Below the pieces are notes generated by a model, which saw only the letters and a program-made list of their open reading frames with translations, had not been told where the DNA came from and did not search any database. A stretch of 64,000 nucleotides of DNA. Source: Chloroflexota bacterium. GTDB taxonomy: Bacteria > Chloroflexota > Dehalococcoidia > CAUJGQ01. The DNA is taken from the NCBI GenBank assembly GCA_036741355.1, contig DAINSK010000001.1, positions 19,047 through 83,046 of the forward strand, read 5' to 3'. Positions 1-32,049 of this stretch are shown piece by piece (position 1 is the stretch's first letter; each line of letters begins with the position of its first letter). Position numbers and translations under genes: made by a program.

Positions 1-265
1 ACGTTCCGGACGAGTCGCCGCCGGTACCGCACGTGTCGATCAAGGGCCCGGCGCGCTCAACGCGCAGCGCCCGCTCCCGCATCACGCGCGCCATGCCGGT
101 GATCTCGTCCGCCGTCTCGCCCCGCAGTCGGAGCGCTGCAAGAAAGGCGCCGAGCTGCGCGGGCGTCGTTTCGCCCGACATGACTTCGGACATCACCTCG
201 GCGGCTTCGTCTTCAGTCAGGTGTCGATCCTGATTGATCAGTGCGTCCAGCGCTTCGCGGATCAT
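1..265 (-). CDS. trpD: Anthranilate phosphoribosyltransferase TrpD, N-terminal part (gene runs off the window start).
   Basis: Reverse-strand translation from the ATG at 263-265 gives MIREALDALINQDRHLTEDEAAEVMSEVMSGETTPAQLGAFLAALRLRGETADEITGMARVMRE...DTCGTGGDSSGT, typical of a TrpD N-terminus. The start overlaps the trpG stop in ATGA fashion. Confidence 0.7.
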   Translation of the reverse strand, partial: MIREALDALINQDRHLTEDEAAEVMSEVMSGETTPAQLGAFLAALRLRGETADEITGMARVMRERALRVERAGPLIDTCGTGGDSSGT

Positions 266-891
266 GACGGGTCTCCTTCGCCGGTCGCTGAGGCAGCGGC
301 GGCCCGCGGCTCACGCATAGATAGGAAGTTGCGCAAAAGGTCCTTTCCATGCGGCGTCATGATCGACTCCGGATGGAACTGGATCCCTTCGACCGCGTAC
401 TGCCGGTGACGTACGCCCATGATTACGCCGCTTTCGCTACGCGCCGTAACCTCGAGCTCGTCCGGCAAACTTGCCGGCTGCACGGCGAGCGAATGGTATC
501 GGATCGCGTCAAACGGTTCTGGCAGACCGGCAAAGACGCCGCGGCCGTCGTGGCTGATCTGCGACAACTTGCCGTGCTTGATCTCCCCGGCGCCGCTGAC
601 CTCGCCTCCGAACGCCTCGCCGATGCACTGGTGGCCAAGGCACACGCCAAGCAGCGGAACACGGCCGGCGAAGTGGCGCACAAGTTCAACGCTGATACCG
701 GCATCAGCCGGCCTACCCGGGCCAGGCGAAATCACGATCTGGTCGGCCGCCATCGCCTCCACTTCACCGACCGTAACGGCGTCGTTGCGCACCACTTTCA
801 CCTCAGCGCCAAGCTCGCAGAGGTACTGGTACAGGTTGTAAGTAAAGCTGTCGTAGTTATCCACGAGCACAAGCATGTCTCTCTTCTCCAA
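262..891 (-). CDS. trpG: Anthranilate synthase component II / glutamine amidotransferase (TrpG/PabA type).
   Basis: The ORF carries a class-I GATase fold with MLVLVDNYDSFTYNLYQYL, the catalytic Cys region GVCLGHQCIGEAFGG, and GIQFHPES. The ORF-track start at 891 is TTG; an internal ATG at 874-876 (MLVLVDNYDSF) is the more canonical start. Confidence 0.85.
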   Translation of the reverse strand: MEKRDMLVLVDNYDSFTYNLYQYLCELGAEVKVVRNDAVTVGEVEAMAADQIVISPGPGRPADAGISVELVRHFAGRVPLLGVCLGHQCIGEAFGGEVSGAGEIKHGKLSQISHDGRGVFAGLPEPFDAIRYHSLAVQPASLPDELEVTARSESGVIMGVRHRQYAVEGIQFHPESIMTPHGKDLLRNFLSMREPRAAAASATGEGDPS

Positions 892-907: not shown

Positions 908-1876
908 TCATTGAACCCGTGCGTCGCCCAACTGCTCCAGGATCAGCCGCGCCGTTTCGTCGGGCATGAGCCCTGTACTGTCGATGCGCAGGCCTCGGAT
1001 TTCACCGTTGAAGCTGAATATTCCGTGGAGCTCTCGGCTGCGTACACCCATTTGCTGATCCCATGAGCGCGCCTGATCCCGGCGACCCACTTCTTCGACC
1101 TGCGGGAGCAAGGTGACGAAGTAGATTTCGGCCCCTTCCAGTTGCTGGAGGAAATCATCCAGTTCTGACGGCTGCTCGAAGACGCCTTCCACCAAGGCGT
1201 CATATCCGGCGGCAGTGAAGTTACGCGACAGTGCGGCGGCGTTTGATACCGCCAGCGAGTAGTGTCTGTAGCTCGCCTGCCGATCGCCGCCTTCCCAGTG
1301 CGGAACGGGGGCGCCGGTACGCACCATATCCGTCAACGCATCGAGCTGAATCAACGCGGCACGGTCCAGCAATCCGCCGATCGCCTCGGCGACAGTCGAT
1401 TTGCCCGCTCCCGCCGGTCCCGTGATCACGATGACCCTGCCAGACGCCACCCCGAATTGGTGCATCGGGCCGCCCGATGGCACGAGTCCAAACGCGGTGG
1501 AGAGCGCATCGACCAGATCGCCGGGTAGTTGCAGCGATCCGAGCGCCTCCAGCGGCACCCAAACGAGAAGGCTACCGCCCGCGGTCTGGTCGAATGGTGT
1601 TCCGTTCCACTCCGTGACCATCTGCAGGTTGTTCAGTCGTACCTCCGAGCTACCGGGAGCGCGCTCGTACAGGGTATCGACGAACTCTTGCTCGTTTGCT
1701 TCGATGCCCGCGTGTTCACGAAGCTGTCTGGCCAACGACTCTTCGATCGAGTCCTCACCATCGCCGAAAGCGAAGCGCGGCAGTGAGTACGTCGCCGACG
1801 CAAGCGGCTCGCCGTCCACCTCGAATAGGACCGACGTTCCGTCACTCACCACCGCGGAGATGAAAATTGCCGGCAT
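908..1876 (-). CDS. Uncharacterised two-domain protein: a ~150-aa N-terminal domain of unknown fold fused to a C-terminal P-loop NTPase/kinase-like domain (AAA_33 / small-molecule-kinase-like).
   Basis: Walker A motif VIVITGPAGAGKSTVAEAIGG, with downstream Asp-containing motifs LIQLDALTD and DALVEGVF. The start codon overlaps the trpE stop (ATGA), and the gene ends 17 nt before trpG, so it is co-transcribed within the trp operon. Confidence 0.55.
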   Translation of the reverse strand: MPAIFISAVVSDGTSVLFEVDGEPLASATYSLPRFAFGDGEDSIEESLARQLREHAGIEANEQEFVDTLYERAPGSSEVRLNNLQMVTEWNGTPFDQTAGGSLLVWVPLEALGSLQLPGDLVDALSTAFGLVPSGGPMHQFGVASGRVIVITGPAGAGKSTVAEAIGGLLDRAALIQLDALTDMVRTGAPVPHWEGGDRQASYRHYSLAVSNAAALSRNFTAAGYDALVEGVFEQPSELDDFLQQLEGAEIYFVTLLPQVEEVGRRDQARSWDQQMGVRSRELHGIFSFNGEIRGLRIDSTGLMPDETARLILEQLGDARVQ

Positions 1877-3351
1877 CAGTATCCCAGACTCCCGGCAGGC
1901 TGAGACTCCAAAGACTGTTCGGCAAGATCAATCGCACGCAGCAGCGCCCGCGCCTTGCTGAGGCTCTCCTGGTACTCGGAGCTCGGGTCGCTGTCGTAGA
2001 CGATGCCGCCACCTGCCTGAACGTGCGCGACGCCGTCTTTCATGACCAGCGTGCGGATGGTTATGCAGGTATCAAGGTTGCCGTTAAAGCTGAAGCAGCC
2101 GATGGCGCCCGCGTAGGGACCACGACGGTCGGGTTCCAGCTCTGCGATGATCTCCATCGCGCGTATTTTCGGAGCACCCGATACCGTGCCTGCCGGAAAG
2201 CAGGCACGAAGCGCGTCGTATGGCGTAACGTCATCGCGCAGACGGCCGCTGACGTGCGAGACCAGGTGCATCACGTGTGAGTAGCGCTCGATCTCAAACA
2301 TCTGCGGCACACGCACCGTACCGGGCTGGGCCACCCTTCCGATGTCGTTTCGGCCCAGGTCAAGCAACATCGTATGCTCGGCCAGCTCTTTCTCATCATG
2401 GCGCAGCTCCTGTTCAAACCGCTGATCTTCGTCCAGGTCGCGACCTCGTGGCCGCGTTCCCGCGATCGGGTGCGTCTCGACCAGGCCGTCTTCGACCCGC
2501 ACCAGCATTTCGGGCGAAGCGCCGACGATCTCGAAGTCACCCAGCTCGAGGTAGTACATGTAGGGCGAGGGGTTGACCTGGCGCAGCGCCCGGTAGATCT
2601 CGAACGCGGGCGCCTCTGTGCGCCGCGACAGTCGCTGCGACAGCACCGCCTGAATGACGTCGCCTTTGACGATGTACTCTTTCGCCGCAACCACGTTGTC
2701 GAGGAACCCTTCACGCCCAGTGTTCGACTCCACGCGGCCGTTGCCGCTGTGCAGAACACTGCTATGCGGGCTGTAATGAAGGGGCTCTTTCAACCGTTTC
2801 GCGAGCTCGTCGATCTTGAACATCGCCAGCCGGTATGCCGCCTCGACGTCGCCGTCCAGCCGCACATGGCTCACCACTTTGATCCGATGGCGCAGGTGGT
2901 CGAACACCAGGATCGTGTCGGTGAACAGCAAGATCGACTCGGGCACCCCCAGCGGATCGGGGTCGGGCGCCGGCAGTCGCTCGAAGTAGCGGGCGACTTC
3001 ATACGACAAATAGCCAACAGCGCCGCCGTGGAATGGAGGCAGATCGCCGACCGGTATCACCTGGAAGCGGCTGATCTCCTCCTCCAAAGCGCGGAGTGGA
3101 TCGACTTCCGCGCCTTGGTCGGGGCCGGTCCGCACTATCCGGTACGGTTCGGTGCCAATGAAGGAGTAGCGCGAGAGCCGCTCGCCTCCCTCCACGCTCT
3201 CCAGCAGGAACGAGTGGGCGCCACGCTTCACTTTCAGGAACGCCGACACGGGAGTGTCGAGGTCGGCGACAACTTCGCGATAGACCGGCACCACGTTACC
3301 AGTGCCGCTTGCCGCCAGCTCTTTTACGTCCTCTAATGATGGGAAGTACAT
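1876..3351 (-). CDS. trpE: Anthranilate synthase component I.
   Basis: 491 aa with chorismate-binding family motifs [56 protein letters not shown] and [28 protein letters not shown]. An RBS (GAAGGGGA) precedes the ATG at 3349-3351. Confidence 0.9.
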
Positions 3352-3365
3352 GGCGATTCCCCTTC

Positions 3366-3715
3366 ATTGCAAACCGGCCGAAACCGGGACAACAAAAAAC
3401 CCCTACCCATATATAGGGGCGAGGGGTTCTCGCGGTGCCACCCTAGTTGCACGCGCTCGCGCGCAGCATCTCTGCTTCAGGTACGTCCACTCGTGGGCGG
3501 AGATACCTTGGGCTCTGCTAACGGTGCCCACTCCGGTGGCGCCTACTCCCCATTGGGGGTTTCGGGCCACGGCTACCGGGTCCATTCCCGCCGTCTAAAC
3601 GGAGCCCGTCTACCAGACGGAACCGCTGCGCTGGCGCCGGCTCTCACCTTACCCGGCTCTCTGGGCCACGCTTGCGGCGTACTAGTCCCGATCACTGCCA
3701 TGATTATGCGGTTGT
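3366..3715 (-). promoter_or_regulatory. T-box riboswitch leader, tryptophan specifier, controlling the trpE-X-trpG-trpD operon.
   Basis: On the minus strand the conserved T-box sequence AACUAGGGUGGCACCGCGAG (plus 3429-3448) closely matches the consensus AAUUAGGGUGGNACCGCG. An F-box CCGUUA sits at plus 3519-3524, and a specifier-loop candidate gaaUGGAcc contains the Trp codon UGG (plus 3582-3584). The terminator hairpin follows immediately. Confidence 0.75.
3391..3426 (-). terminator. Intrinsic terminator of the T-box leader (alternative to the antiterminator).
   Basis: Minus-strand sequence CCCCUCGCCCCUAuauaugGGUAGGGG followed by UUUUUUGUU, lying between the T-box motif and the trpE RBS. Confidence 0.65.
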
Positions 3716-3722
3716 GCTAACT

Positions 3723-3752
3723 ATGGTAGCGGAGTGGCGCCGACGCTGTCAA
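3723..3752 (-). promoter_or_regulatory. Sigma70-like promoter for the T-box leader.
   Basis: On the minus strand, -35 TTGACA (plus 3747-3752), an 18-nt spacer, and -10 TACCAT (plus 3723-3728). The predicted TSS is about 7 nt downstream, which is consistent with where the leader begins. Confidence 0.4.
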
Positions 3753-3942: not shown

Positions 3943-4728
3943 ATGATCAAACTCAATGACGTCACCAAGCGCTACCTGATGGGCGATGTGACCGTCGACG
4001 CACTACGCGGGGTAACGCTGGAGATCGACGACGGCGAATTCGTCGCCATCATGGGCCCCTCCGGGTCGGGCAAGTCCACGCTAATGAACATTGTCGGCTG
4101 CCTCGACACGCCGACATCGGGGTCCTATGAGCTGGACGCCATCGAAGTCAGCCGCATGACGGACGACCAATTGGCGGTGATCCGCAACCGCAAGATCGGC
4201 TTCGTATTTCAGTCGTTCAACCTATTGCCCCGCGTGGAAGCGATCAAACAAGTCGAGCTGCCGCTCATGTACGCTGGTGTGCGCGATCGCCGGAGGATGG
4301 CGTTGGACGCGCTCGAAGCCGTCGGGCTCGGCGACCGCGTCCATCACCGCCCGAGGGAGCTCTCCGGAGGACAGCAGCAGCGGGTGGCTATTGCTCGCGC
4401 CCTGGTCGGCGAACCCACGCTCATCCTCGCTGACGAGCCGACTGGCGCCCTCGACACGCGATCCAGCGAAGAGATTATGACCCTGTTTCAACGACTGAAC
4501 GAAGACCGCGGTATCACCGTCTTGTTCGTCACGCATGAGGCGGACGTTGCCGCCTACACCAACCGCACGCTTACAATCCGCGATGGCCTGATCGTGCGCG
4601 ACGGACCCAGTCCCAAGCGTTCCGAGGCGCTTCCGGATGAACACGAGCACCTCGGCCATCTCAGTCCAGTACAGCAGCACGACAACGGCGCGGTGCCGAT
4701 CGAGACGCCGGTACCGGTGGAAGGATAG
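3943..4728 (+). CDS. ABC transporter ATP-binding protein, MacB/LolD/FtsE-type.
   Basis: Walker [10 protein letters not shown], the ABC signature [15 protein letters not shown], Walker [12 protein letters not shown], and an N-terminus typical of MacB-like ATPases. The ATG is at 3943. Confidence 0.9.
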
Positions 4729-4731
4729 CGA

Positions 4732-5988
<1,257 letters not shown>

Positions 5989-23829: not shown

Positions 23830-25326
23830 TCACATACTCCCGGTGATATATGCCTGCGCCTTGTCCCAGGCGCGGACGCCGGCTATGTGCCCCATCGCCC
23901 TACCTTGCAGATCGCCATCAGGAAAGTGGATGCCGCCATAGCGGCGCGACAAACCCGCCTGGTCGGCCGCGTCCGAAAAGGTCTTCCAGGTCAGCGTCAC
24001 ATCCGTGGCGGGGACGGCGCCCGGCTCGAAACGCGAGCTCCCGGCGGCCTGAGTATATGAAGCGCCAAAGTCATCGCTGCCGGTGAAGCGTCGCAGGACT
24101 TCTGCCGCCGCCGCGCTAAAGGTGCTATGTCCAGAGACATACTCGGGAAAGGCCGGCGTGACGACGCTCGGCGACTGGAAGAGTTGCCACGTTCCGCCGT
24201 CGATCAACTGCGTCCCTTGAAATGGGCCTCCCCAGGCTCGCACTTGTTGACCCTGAAACAAGAATCGCACCGCGGTGATGGGGCGTACCGAGTCGTAGAG
24301 GCGTTTGGTATCCCAGGCAGCGATGCCCGCGTCCATCAATGCGTTCGTCATCGCGAAGAACATCTTGACGTCGGCGTCAAGGTCATTTCCGTCCCGAAGC
24401 GACACGAAGCGCGCAAACAGGCACCAATGGCCGGGCGGCAACTCCGACGAAGGACCGTCGGCAAAGTACTCGGTGATTACCTTTTGCTCGTCGGTGAGGT
24501 TGGCGCTGTACTCCAGCATCTGTTCGGCCTGGATGCTGTATGCCTCGGACGGATACGTGGCCGGTCCGAAGGCCGGTCGAAGTTCCGCGCCCGAAACAAG
24601 GGCGAATGGTGTGACGAGCCCCCAGTGCGGGCCGATGTACTGCTGCACCACAAAGCCCTTTTGCGGGTCGAAAACGCTCAGCGGCTGCCAGCGGTTTGGA
24701 TCTACGACCTCGTCCGGCGTGTTGACAGGTTGGTAGCCGGTGTAATCGGAATAAGGCCCAGGGTGCAGATCGCCTAACTGGTTAGAACCGTCGCCGTGAC
24801 GCCAATCGATCACCGCAGCGGCGCAGACGTTGCCGACTCCGGCAGGGGTCGTTGGATCGGTGTTGGTGTCGTCCGGGCTGTACCCCTGCGCGGCCATGAG
24901 ATCGGCGAACGCCGGCGTCGACGTTGGGAAGAGGTCAACCAGCGCCCGGTAGGCGGCAAAGCTGACCACAGCCTGCTTGTTGGCCGCCGTGTGCTCGGTC
25001 GTTGGTCTGCGAATGTCCGCTCCCAGGCGCGTACCAACGGCGACCGGGTCGAATGCCGCCCACGCGTCATACATGCAGGTGTGGAGGATCGCGAGAGCGC
25101 GGGCCACCATCGGAGGTCCCGGCTTCGTGTCACGGATCGCCTGAAGTGCGGCCGCGTCCCACATCAACACGGCGTTCTCGCCGGCAGAGAACGCCGTATC
25201 TCTACCGACGACCGACGTTCGCCGTAGGCGAGGCATGCGGCGGTCCGGCATTATCGGTAAGGCTGAAATTACTGCTATCGCCGAAGCTCCGCCGACGGCA
25301 CGACGAAATAGTTCGCGGCGATTCAT
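23830..25326 (-). CDS. Tat-secreted vanadium-dependent haloperoxidase / PAP2-superfamily protein.
   Basis: A twin-arginine signal MNRRELFRRAVGGASAIAVISALP, and the PAP2/vanadate-binding signature blocks KRLYDSVRP and PEYVSGHSTFSAAAAEVL ... RRYGGIHFPDG. Confidence 0.7.
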   Translation of the reverse strand: MNRRELFRRAVGGASAIAVISALPIMPDRRMPRLRRTSVVGRDTAFSAGENAVLMWDAAALQAIRDTKPGPPMVARALAILHTCMYDAWAAFDPVAVGTRLGADIRRPTTEHTAANKQAVVSFAAYRALVDLFPTSTPAFADLMAAQGYSPDDTNTDPTTPAGVGNVCAAAVIDWRHGDGSNQLGDLHPGPYSDYTGYQPVNTPDEVVDPNRWQPLSVFDPQKGFVVQQYIGPHWGLVTPFALVSGAELRPAFGPATYPSEAYSIQAEQMLEYSANLTDEQKVITEYFADGPSSELPPGHWCLFARFVSLRDGNDLDADVKMFFAMTNALMDAGIAAWDTKRLYDSVRPITAVRFLFQGQQVRAWGGPFQGTQLIDGGTWQLFQSPSVVTPAFPEYVSGHSTFSAAAAEVLRRFTGSDDFGASYTQAAGSSRFEPGAVPATDVTLTWKTFSDAADQAGLSRRYGGIHFPDGDLQGRAMGHIAGVRAWDKAQAYITGSM

Positions 25327-25437
25327 TCGCCTGTAACCGACCGCTGTCTTTGTGTGGCGAGCACTATGTCGCGGCATCATCAAAAGCGGCGAGTCCTGTA
25401 CTATCTGTCAAGGTTTGGCGATATTGCCGACCTGGAC

Positions 25438-31777: not shown

Positions 31778-31864
31778 CGGAGAGGGTGGGATTCGAACCC
31801 ACGAGACGGTTGCCCGCCTACACGATTTCCAGTCGTGCCTGATCGGCCACTCCAGCACCTCTCC
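31778..31864 (-). tRNA. tRNA-Ser (anticodon GGA).
   Basis: On the minus strand: acceptor GGAGAGG/CCTCTCC, D-loop GCTGGAGTGG, anticodon loop CUGGAAA, a long variable arm, T-loop GGTTCGAATCC, and discriminator G. Confidence 0.8.
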
Positions 31865-31965
31865 CTTCCGTCCGCGGGCCAGGCGGACGATGCCCAGACT
31901 GACGAAGCGGGAAGCCCATGGCTTCCCGCTTCACATCTGCTACGTTTGCCGACCAGGTAGCGCGG

Positions 31966-32049
31966 CGGAGAGGGTGGGATTCGAACCCACGAGGCTCATC
32001 GCCTACCGCTTTTCGAGAGCGGCACCTTCAACCACTCGGACACCTCTCC
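31966..32049 (-). tRNA. tRNA-Ser (anticodon CGA).
   Basis: On the minus strand: acceptor GGAGAGG, anticodon stem-loop CCGCT-CUCGAAA-AGCGG, a long variable arm, and T-loop GGTTCGAATCC. Confidence 0.8.

Follow-up and report, generated by a model that had tools for sequence, protein, structure and literature searches.

The genes for the two subunits of anthranilate synthase, TrpE and TrpG, are normally adjacent or fused, and the tryptophan pathway, with its seven genes, is generally considered to be completely understood. In a 64,000-nucleotide (nt) stretch of a Chloroflexota genome (contig DAINSK010000001.1; hereafter the window), a further open reading frame (ORF), here called gene X, lies between trpE and trpG. 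What does this gene encode, and what keeps it there? Gene X (908..1876, minus strand, stop codon 908-910) was recognized from the ORF list and from Pfam matches to CPT and AAA_33, and encodes a 322-amino acid (aa) protein in which a Nudix-like domain is fused to a P-loop kinase domain. Gene X is a genuine, lineage-restricted accessory gene of a trp operon under the control of a T-box leader specific for tryptophan. In all 19 related loci whose flanks could be read, at amino acid identities as low as 35%, it directly follows trpE, directly precedes trpG, or both. The function that we tentatively propose, as an accessory or regulatory partner of anthranilate synthase, is discussed after the evidence from the operon and from the two domains.

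Gene X is a separate gene of the trp operon

All genes of the operon described here are on the minus strand. The trpE gene (1876..3351), encoding anthranilate synthase component I, is full length (491 aa), and its product matches both of its Pfam domains from end to end (Chorismate_bind, 7e-94; Anth_synt_I_N, 8e-32) and carries the usual LLES feedback motif. The trpG gene (262..876) encodes the glutamine amidotransferase component II, with 204 aa counted from the ATG at 876, the start that was also chosen by independent gene calls. TrpG covers positions 1-187 of the 190 in the GATase model (7e-62), and its catalytic triad, consisting of the Cys in GVCLGHQ and the His-Pro-Glu residues in FHPES, is kept. 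The 5' part of trpD, encoding anthranilate phosphoribosyltransferase, was identified at 1..265 by an N-terminus with CGTGGD and continues past the window edge; in loci L009 and L010, Glycos_transf_3 is annotated at the equivalent place.

The start codon of gene X overlaps the trpE stop codon, as described previously from the sequence. The overlap is not the ATGA that was first reported, however, but TGATG, with a single shared base (the A at 1876); ATGA is found at the junction of the trpG stop and the trpD start. The distance to trpG had been given as 17 nt and needs correction, being 31 nt to the ATG at 876 and 16 nt to the upstream in-frame TTG at 891.

A mis-called fusion or frameshift could in principle have turned a piece of TrpE or TrpG into an apparent third gene. 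The preliminary description had named this as an outcome that would overturn its view of X as a separate, uncharacterized two-domain P-loop protein. X is not a stray piece of either subunit because both are full length on their own Pfam models, and X itself has no Chorismate_bind or GATase match in a Pfam scan. X has folds of its own according to an AlphaFold2 (AF2) model and Foldseek, and gene calls from independent assemblies likewise give three distinct ORFs. The probability of an artefact is thus practically nil, and we consider this explanation refuted; the separate two-domain protein stands.

Conservation of the trpE-X-trpG arrangement

The loci in which X occupies this slot are those of P0001 and its 98% variant (L008-11 and L034), P0003 (L004), P0005 (L001-3), P0007 (L005-6), P0016 (L007), P0033 (L024-26), P0042 (L027), P0038 (L030-31) and P0037 (L032-33), together with L012 and L035 to L039. 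The slot is also occupied in the loci of three members with inactivated kinase domains, namely P0024 (L028-29), P0022 (L023) and P0027, the last from gene calls only. The consistent trp linkage that the preliminary description had asked to be profiled is therefore confirmed. Gene calls show a 1-nt overlap between the trpE stop and the X start in the core subfamily; in L024, there is an overlap of the stop of X with the start of trpG. The only case in which X does not directly follow trpE is L023, where a DUF3303 ORF of 108 aa (112-438) lies between the trpE end and X. No member of the X family was found outside the trp slot or in an interrupted form.

In the long loci, the operon has the order trpE-X-trpG-trpD-trpC-trpF-trpB-(Rce1-like)-trpA. 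Co-occurrence with trpC and trpF, another point raised at the outset, was thereby established: both genes are present and the pathway is complete, and therefore X does not replace trpC or trpF. The trpS gene precedes the operon in L030 and L032. Both of these more distant relatives have an extended aromatic operon under T-box control. In that of L030 (3152-16603), an extra PALP (TrpB-like) gene accompanies trpS upstream of trpE, and trpA is followed by genes for chorismate mutase (CM_1) and DAHP synthase; that of L032 (867-8976) starts with trpS. Every long X locus also encodes, between trpB and trpA, an Rce1-like membrane protein of the CPBP intramembrane protease family (PF02517). This gene is found at 8964-9746 in L009, 11616-12398 in L001, 6002-6949 in L024 and 13305-14096 in L030, a place in the operon that falls past the left edge of the window. 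The Rce1-like insert may be functionally linked to X or may be an independent insert.

A word-indexed search of 5.8 billion proteins retrieved 16 full-length homologues of X (38-100% identity) and a few kinase-only matches. An exhaustive search of 1.84 billion cluster representatives with a hidden Markov model (HMM) of the N-terminal domain retrieved 284 matches at E<=1e-3 and 43 at E<=1e-10, and the top matches are two-domain proteins of 284-378 aa with the X architecture. Source names, where present, are Dehalococcoidia or Chloroflexota. The X family is thus rare and restricted to Chloroflexota wherever a name is available. The preliminary description would have been contradicted by an insertion confined to this lineage whose homologues lack trp linkage; the confinement is real, yet the homologues are trp-linked.

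None of the stand-alone kinase-domain relatives (L013-L022) lies within 8 kb of a trp gene. A pattern scan of genome contigs was dominated by generic Walker A sequences, and the matches listed include the family locus L012 and stand-alone kinases. The trp linkage belongs to the fusion and not to the stand-alone kinase.

Control by a T-box leader

A T-box leader was identified upstream of trpE at 3412..3704 (minus strand). Its match to RF00230 is full length, yet the score of 70.9 bits (cmscan, E 2.7e-15) is below the Rfam gathering score of 93, so that the leader was missed at the gathering threshold and recovered with an E-value threshold. The specifier reads GAA-UGG-A, with the tryptophan codon UGG at 3584-3582, and the T-box sequence is AGGGUGGCACCGCGAG. 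The intrinsic terminator hairpin of the leader (3399..3420, minus strand) is followed by TTTTTTG. Just upstream of the leader, a promoter-like site TTGACA-18-TACCAT (3723..3752, minus strand) matches the consensus at 10 of 12 positions and is identified by this match only. From the leader down to position 1, the terminator scan found no minus-strand terminator-like site other than the leader's own.

T-box leaders also precede the operons of L001, L035, L030 and L032, and when these four leaders are aligned with that of the window, neither the specifier GGAAUGGACC nor the T-box varies. An earlier study reported that trp genes of Chloroflexi are under T-box control (PMC2494555). The tryptophan specifier and the lack of an intervening terminator agree with the earlier claim that X is co-transcribed with trpE and trpG under this leader, and support the view that gene X makes a functional protein, with expression linked to tryptophan starvation. 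On the plus strand, at 3943-5988, the trp promoter region is flanked by the divergently transcribed genes of a MacB-type ABC exporter, encoding an ABC_tran ATPase and an FtsX/MacB_PCD permease.

Sequence divergence and selection

Across the loci, identity to the window proteins is 65-89% for TrpE, 69-83% for TrpG and 35-56% for X. The ratio of nonsynonymous to synonymous substitution rates (dN/dS) between the window and L034 is 0.21 for X, 0.16 for TrpE and 0.19 for TrpG; by domain, it is 0.08 for the kinase and 0.34 for the N-terminal domain, with few substitutions. In three more divergent pairs, the ratios are 0.19-0.36 for X, 0.03-0.06 for TrpE and 0.17 for TrpG. X is under purifying selection, yet it is the least constrained gene of the operon.

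These values bear on the possibility that X is a passenger, which entered the operon through a single ancestral insertion and has since been inherited with it while contributing nothing to tryptophan synthesis. Inserts of unknown function are known from trp operons and have been considered as possible passengers (PMC2395257). The narrow distribution of the family and the position of X as the most divergent gene of the operon are consistent with such an origin. A passenger would not be expected, however, to show the purifying selection measured here (dN/dS 0.19-0.36), or motifs in both domains that are invariant down to 35% identity. X is kept across lineages in which TrpE has diverged to 65% identity, its translational coupling to trpE is conserved, and no copy has left the slot or been interrupted. 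We regard the passenger explanation as improbable.

A degenerate Nudix domain at the N-terminus

The N-terminal domain (aa 1-132; 1481..1876) adopts a MutT-type Nudix fold with a non-functional Nudix box. The N-terminal half had been described as matching nothing recognizable, and in profile and Foldseek searches this did not hold: it is a divergent member of a known fold and hence not novel. A profile built from the 16 homologues matches MutT (E 2.7e-5) and NudG (E 3e-5) in the PDB, and a broader profile of the N-terminal domain matches NudG with E 3.4e-9. In Foldseek searches with the AF2 model, this domain aligns to MutT and RppH with template modelling (TM) scores of 0.76-0.81 (MutT, 0.80) and shows the alpha/beta/alpha arrangement of the Nudix fold. 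The Pfam NUDIX model (PF00293) gives 15.3 bits on X, under its cut-off of 21.1.

The catalytic signature of Nudix hydrolases, GX5EX7REUXEEXGU, is not preserved. X has R50-Q51-L-R-E54-H55 (RQ..EH) at the RE-U-x-EE position, and the leading glycines of the box are likewise lost in the alignment to NudG and MutT. In a wider set of 36 family members, none has a complete REx2EE and many have none of its four residues. By contrast with the decayed box, a hairpin that follows the Nudix helix carries F65, T68, Y70, E71, R72 and N83, which vary hardly at all among the 36 members and form a motif of the family.

NrtR and AraR contain non-catalytic Nudix domains that bind rather than hydrolyse their ligands. 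Both are among the structural neighbours of the N-terminal domain of X. A Nudix fold without the metal-binding glutamates is therefore expected to bind and not to hydrolyse, as in NrtR and AraR. By this analogy, the pseudo-Nudix domain would bind a nucleotide-like or aromatic ligand or a protein partner, probably without hydrolysis.

The same degenerate Nudix clade, with the F..T.Y ... N motif and an incomplete box, also occurs fused to methyltransferases dependent on S-adenosylmethionine or to CMD/AhpD-like domains. Among the lower-ranking matches of the N-domain search, such fusions were found in P0048, P0050, P0059, P0062, P0079, P0106 and P0116, and further in P0049, P0060, P0063, P0064, P0066, P0069, P0070, P0074, P0076 and P0090. 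A catalytically dead Nudix domain thus appears to be reused as an N-terminal module for a kinase, a methyltransferase or a CMD-type domain.

The C-terminal domain is a P-loop kinase

The C-terminal domain (aa 146-322; 911..1441) was assigned to the BH3686/CPT type of P-loop kinases by PDB profile search, Foldseek and motifs, in agreement with the kinase-like domain first proposed for this half. It is above the cut-offs of two Pfam models, CPT (PF07931; 34.9 bits, cut-off 22, aa 146-315) and AAA_33 (PF13671; 32.1 bits, cut-off 27). The profile of 16 homologues matches PDB 2BDT at E 8.7e-24, and Foldseek gives TM scores of 0.80 to 2BDT and 0.73 to the CPT structure 1qhs.

The Walker A motif GPAGAGKS (aa 153-160; 1397..1420) is conserved across alignment A1 with P, A or V at position 154, and the longer GPAGAGKST noted at first is present at aa 153-161. 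GPAGAGKS, D179, R266, D267 and R270 are invariant in A1 and in 31 of the 36 wider members. In these 31 members, down to 35% overall identity, 17 kinase motif positions are identical, comprising Walker A, D179, E234, R266-D267, R270, the MG.R motif and E292/R294/G295/D299. The kinase domain contains many invariant Arg residues. The motifs support a kinase that is probably catalytically competent in most lineages.

The two domains are joined by a linker (aa 133-145; 1442..1480) of about 12 residues that is variable in length and sequence in A1 and predicted to be flexible, with a predicted local distance difference test (pLDDT) score below 50 at residues 133-143. The AF2 model has a mean pLDDT of 83.5 and two domains separated by this disordered segment, and its predicted TM score of 0.55 leaves the relative orientation of the domains unfixed.

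Kinase-dead members of the family

Five of the 36 members (P0022, P0024, P0027, P0036 and P0041) have lost essentially all kinase motifs and have kept the N-domain motif. With a C-terminal domain about as long as in the other members, they resemble pseudokinases, and such forms seem to have arisen in both subfamilies. As noted above, P0022, P0024 and P0027 are still in the trp slot. If the N-terminal domain served only the kinase, it would be expected to decay with it in these three proteins; its retention supports a kinase-independent role for the degenerate Nudix domain. The preliminary description had suggested, from the context of the gene, an unrecognized accessory function in tryptophan or anthranilate metabolism, such as a phosphotransfer or salvage step. 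Since the kinase motifs are lost in five of the 36 members, a simple missing phosphotransfer step is not the whole story.

The conserved active site, together with structural neighbours that are small-molecule kinases, suggests that X could act as a free metabolite kinase that supplies or salvages a precursor under tryptophan scarcity, with the dead Nudix domain only binding the substrate or an effector. Candidates would be a Trp-regulated isozyme resembling shikimate or gluconate kinase, or an enzyme that phosphorylates a ribose-phosphate compound akin to phosphoribosyl pyrophosphate (PRPP). Enzymes of the common pathway can be co-regulated with trp genes, as the chorismate mutase and DAHP synthase genes in related operons show; in Escherichia coli, the aroL gene for shikimate kinase II is part of the TrpR regulon. 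The closest stand-alone kinases (43-46% identity; L013 7078-8543 and L014 7124-8570) directly follow nadC in nadB-nadC clusters, and nadC encodes another PRPP-using phosphoribosyltransferase. This linkage hints at a role of the ancestral kinase related to PRPP or nicotinamide adenine dinucleotide, although it comes from two closely related Chloroflexota metagenome-assembled genomes and counts as a single observation. The likeness of X to shikimate kinase (AroK/AroL) is limited to the P-loop (1kag, E 0.032, aa 144-170) and the GGG motif is missing, so that this candidate was rejected. APS kinase (PF01583) was also rejected, its family model being below the cut-off. No aro or PRPP genes were found among the 20 other window ORFs scanned. 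The kinase-dead forms, which keep both the N-terminal domain and the slot, are unexpected if that domain only serves the kinase, and we consider a free metabolite kinase rather unlikely.

The kinase fold also raises the possibility of a resistance kinase of the CPT/TmrD/Gar type, directed against an antimetabolite that causes tryptophan starvation and hence induced through the T-box. The best Pfam family of X is chloramphenicol phosphotransferase and the tunicamycin-resistance protein TmrD is a structural neighbour. The fast evolution of X and the repeated loss of the kinase would fit a conditionally useful gene, and the Rce1/CPBP membrane protein encoded in the same operons is immunity-like. 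No NCBIfam model comes near its cut-off for X; the best is the Gar/GrdA gentamicin-resistance ATP-binding protein, which points in the same direction but lies far below. PADLOC defence models gave matches of P-loop length only (about 30 residues; best E 3e-5), with no similarity beyond the P-loop. All family matches are far under the equivalog cut-offs and no known toxin is involved. Resistance genes would not be expected to stay so strictly in a single slot without signs of mobility, and conservation of the N-terminal domain in kinase-dead forms would be left unexplained. A resistance function therefore has a low probability.

Proposed role of X

Among the explanations considered, we favour, with less than even confidence, an accessory or regulatory protein associated with anthranilate synthase, composed of a pseudo-Nudix binding module and an ATP-dependent kinase. 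An accessory partner is suggested because X lies between the genes of two co-assembling subunits and its start is coupled to the trpE stop. X would be translated from the TrpE/TrpG mRNA when tRNA-Trp is uncharged. In this model, the part that stays constant and cannot be dispensed with would be the pseudo-Nudix domain, which would bind either a ligand or TrpE/TrpG. To this, the kinase of most lineages would add the ATP-dependent transfer of phosphate to a small metabolite that bears a hydroxyl group, is probably anionic and is connected with the flux through the pathway. We infer that the dead Nudix domain binds a ligand, that X associates with anthranilate synthase, and which type of substrate the kinase uses. 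It is possible, with a lower probability, that X constitutes a third component of anthranilate synthase, an ATP-using and ligand-sensing partner of TrpE:TrpG, or catalyzes a new phosphorylation tied to tryptophan, such as metabolite repair or precursor supply.

Several observations weigh against an anthranilate-synthase partner. The core enzyme, with its feedback motif and catalytic triad in place, shows no evident need of a helper. No TrpE-X or X-TrpG fusion was found among the N-domain HMM representatives, judged by their lengths and by reading those of more than 400 aa. The matches of at least 385 aa that were read are fusions with methyltransferase, CMD, TPR or other domains and not with Trp enzymes. 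The dN/dS of X is 3-6 times that of TrpE, so that its constraint is below that expected of an obligate subunit. The fixed slot could reflect one ancestral insertion into a stable operon, and the nearest solved kinase relative, 2BDT, is itself uncharacterized.

A protein that is kept between TrpE and TrpG across deep divergence, is produced together with them only when tryptophan is short, and preserves one domain where the other is lost points to an accessory layer at the committed step of tryptophan synthesis, which could act in regulation, assembly, metabolite repair or protection. X is confined to uncultured Chloroflexota and would surprise specialists of the tryptophan pathway; the hypothesis is amenable to work with recombinant proteins without culturing the hosts.

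Other features of the window

A 517-aa protein with a DUF6851 domain and a vanadium-chloroperoxidase-like helical-bundle domain (VCPO_2nd) is encoded at 23830-25383 (minus strand). Its neighbours are genes for an acyl-CoA dehydrogenase, a CoA-transferase and a PhyH dioxygenase. A pair of tRNA genes, separated by about 100 nt, is located at 31778-32049 (minus strand; Rfam tRNA, 53.6 and 54.6 bits).

Comparison with known systems

The closest solved relative of the kinase domain is BH3686 of Bacillus halodurans (PDB 2BDT, annotated as 'putative gluconate kinase'), with 28-30% identity. X and BH3686 have in common the Walker A motif, an Asp after strand 2, a P-x-W loop and an RRD..R..D.QMGER motif, whereas the C-terminal NGE-RG-R-D motif of X is missing from BH3686. 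BH3686 is a stand-alone protein of about 190 residues without a Nudix domain or a known trp linkage, and the literature holds no functional account of it that we could find. Through X, this orphan structural-genomics family gains its first functional context.

Chloramphenicol 3-O-phosphotransferase (CPT; PF07931, PDB 1QHS/1GRQ), TmrD and Gar share the P-loop kinase fold of X, and D179 of X appears from the alignment to correspond to the catalytic Asp of CPT. X differs from CPT and related antibiotic kinases in its low identity (about 16%), its fusion to a Nudix domain and its location inside a biosynthetic operon.

Concerning the N-terminal domain, MutT, NudG (Orf135) and RppH carry the full box signature, which is complete in none of the 36 members of the X family. 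NrtR and AraR control transcription through Nudix domains fused to winged-helix DNA-binding domains, whereas X has a kinase and no DNA-binding domain.

With regard to the operon, the gap between trpE and trpG in Pseudomonas holds pyocin clusters. Lineage-specific non-trp ORFs whose function is unknown or modulatory have been described in other trp operons, for example an ORF, also named X, between trpB and trpA in Burkholderia (PMC2395257), and trpX/TrpM in Streptomyces (PMC5036795). A literature search found nothing on the X family of Chloroflexota or on a co-transcribed gene between trpE and trpG. The inserts in Burkholderia and Streptomyces are other types of protein in other operon slots, and none of those described is a Nudix-kinase fusion or occupies a co-transcribed place between trpE and trpG. 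Compared with these systems, X combines two well-known folds into a domain architecture that is new, in a context that is likewise new and strictly conserved.

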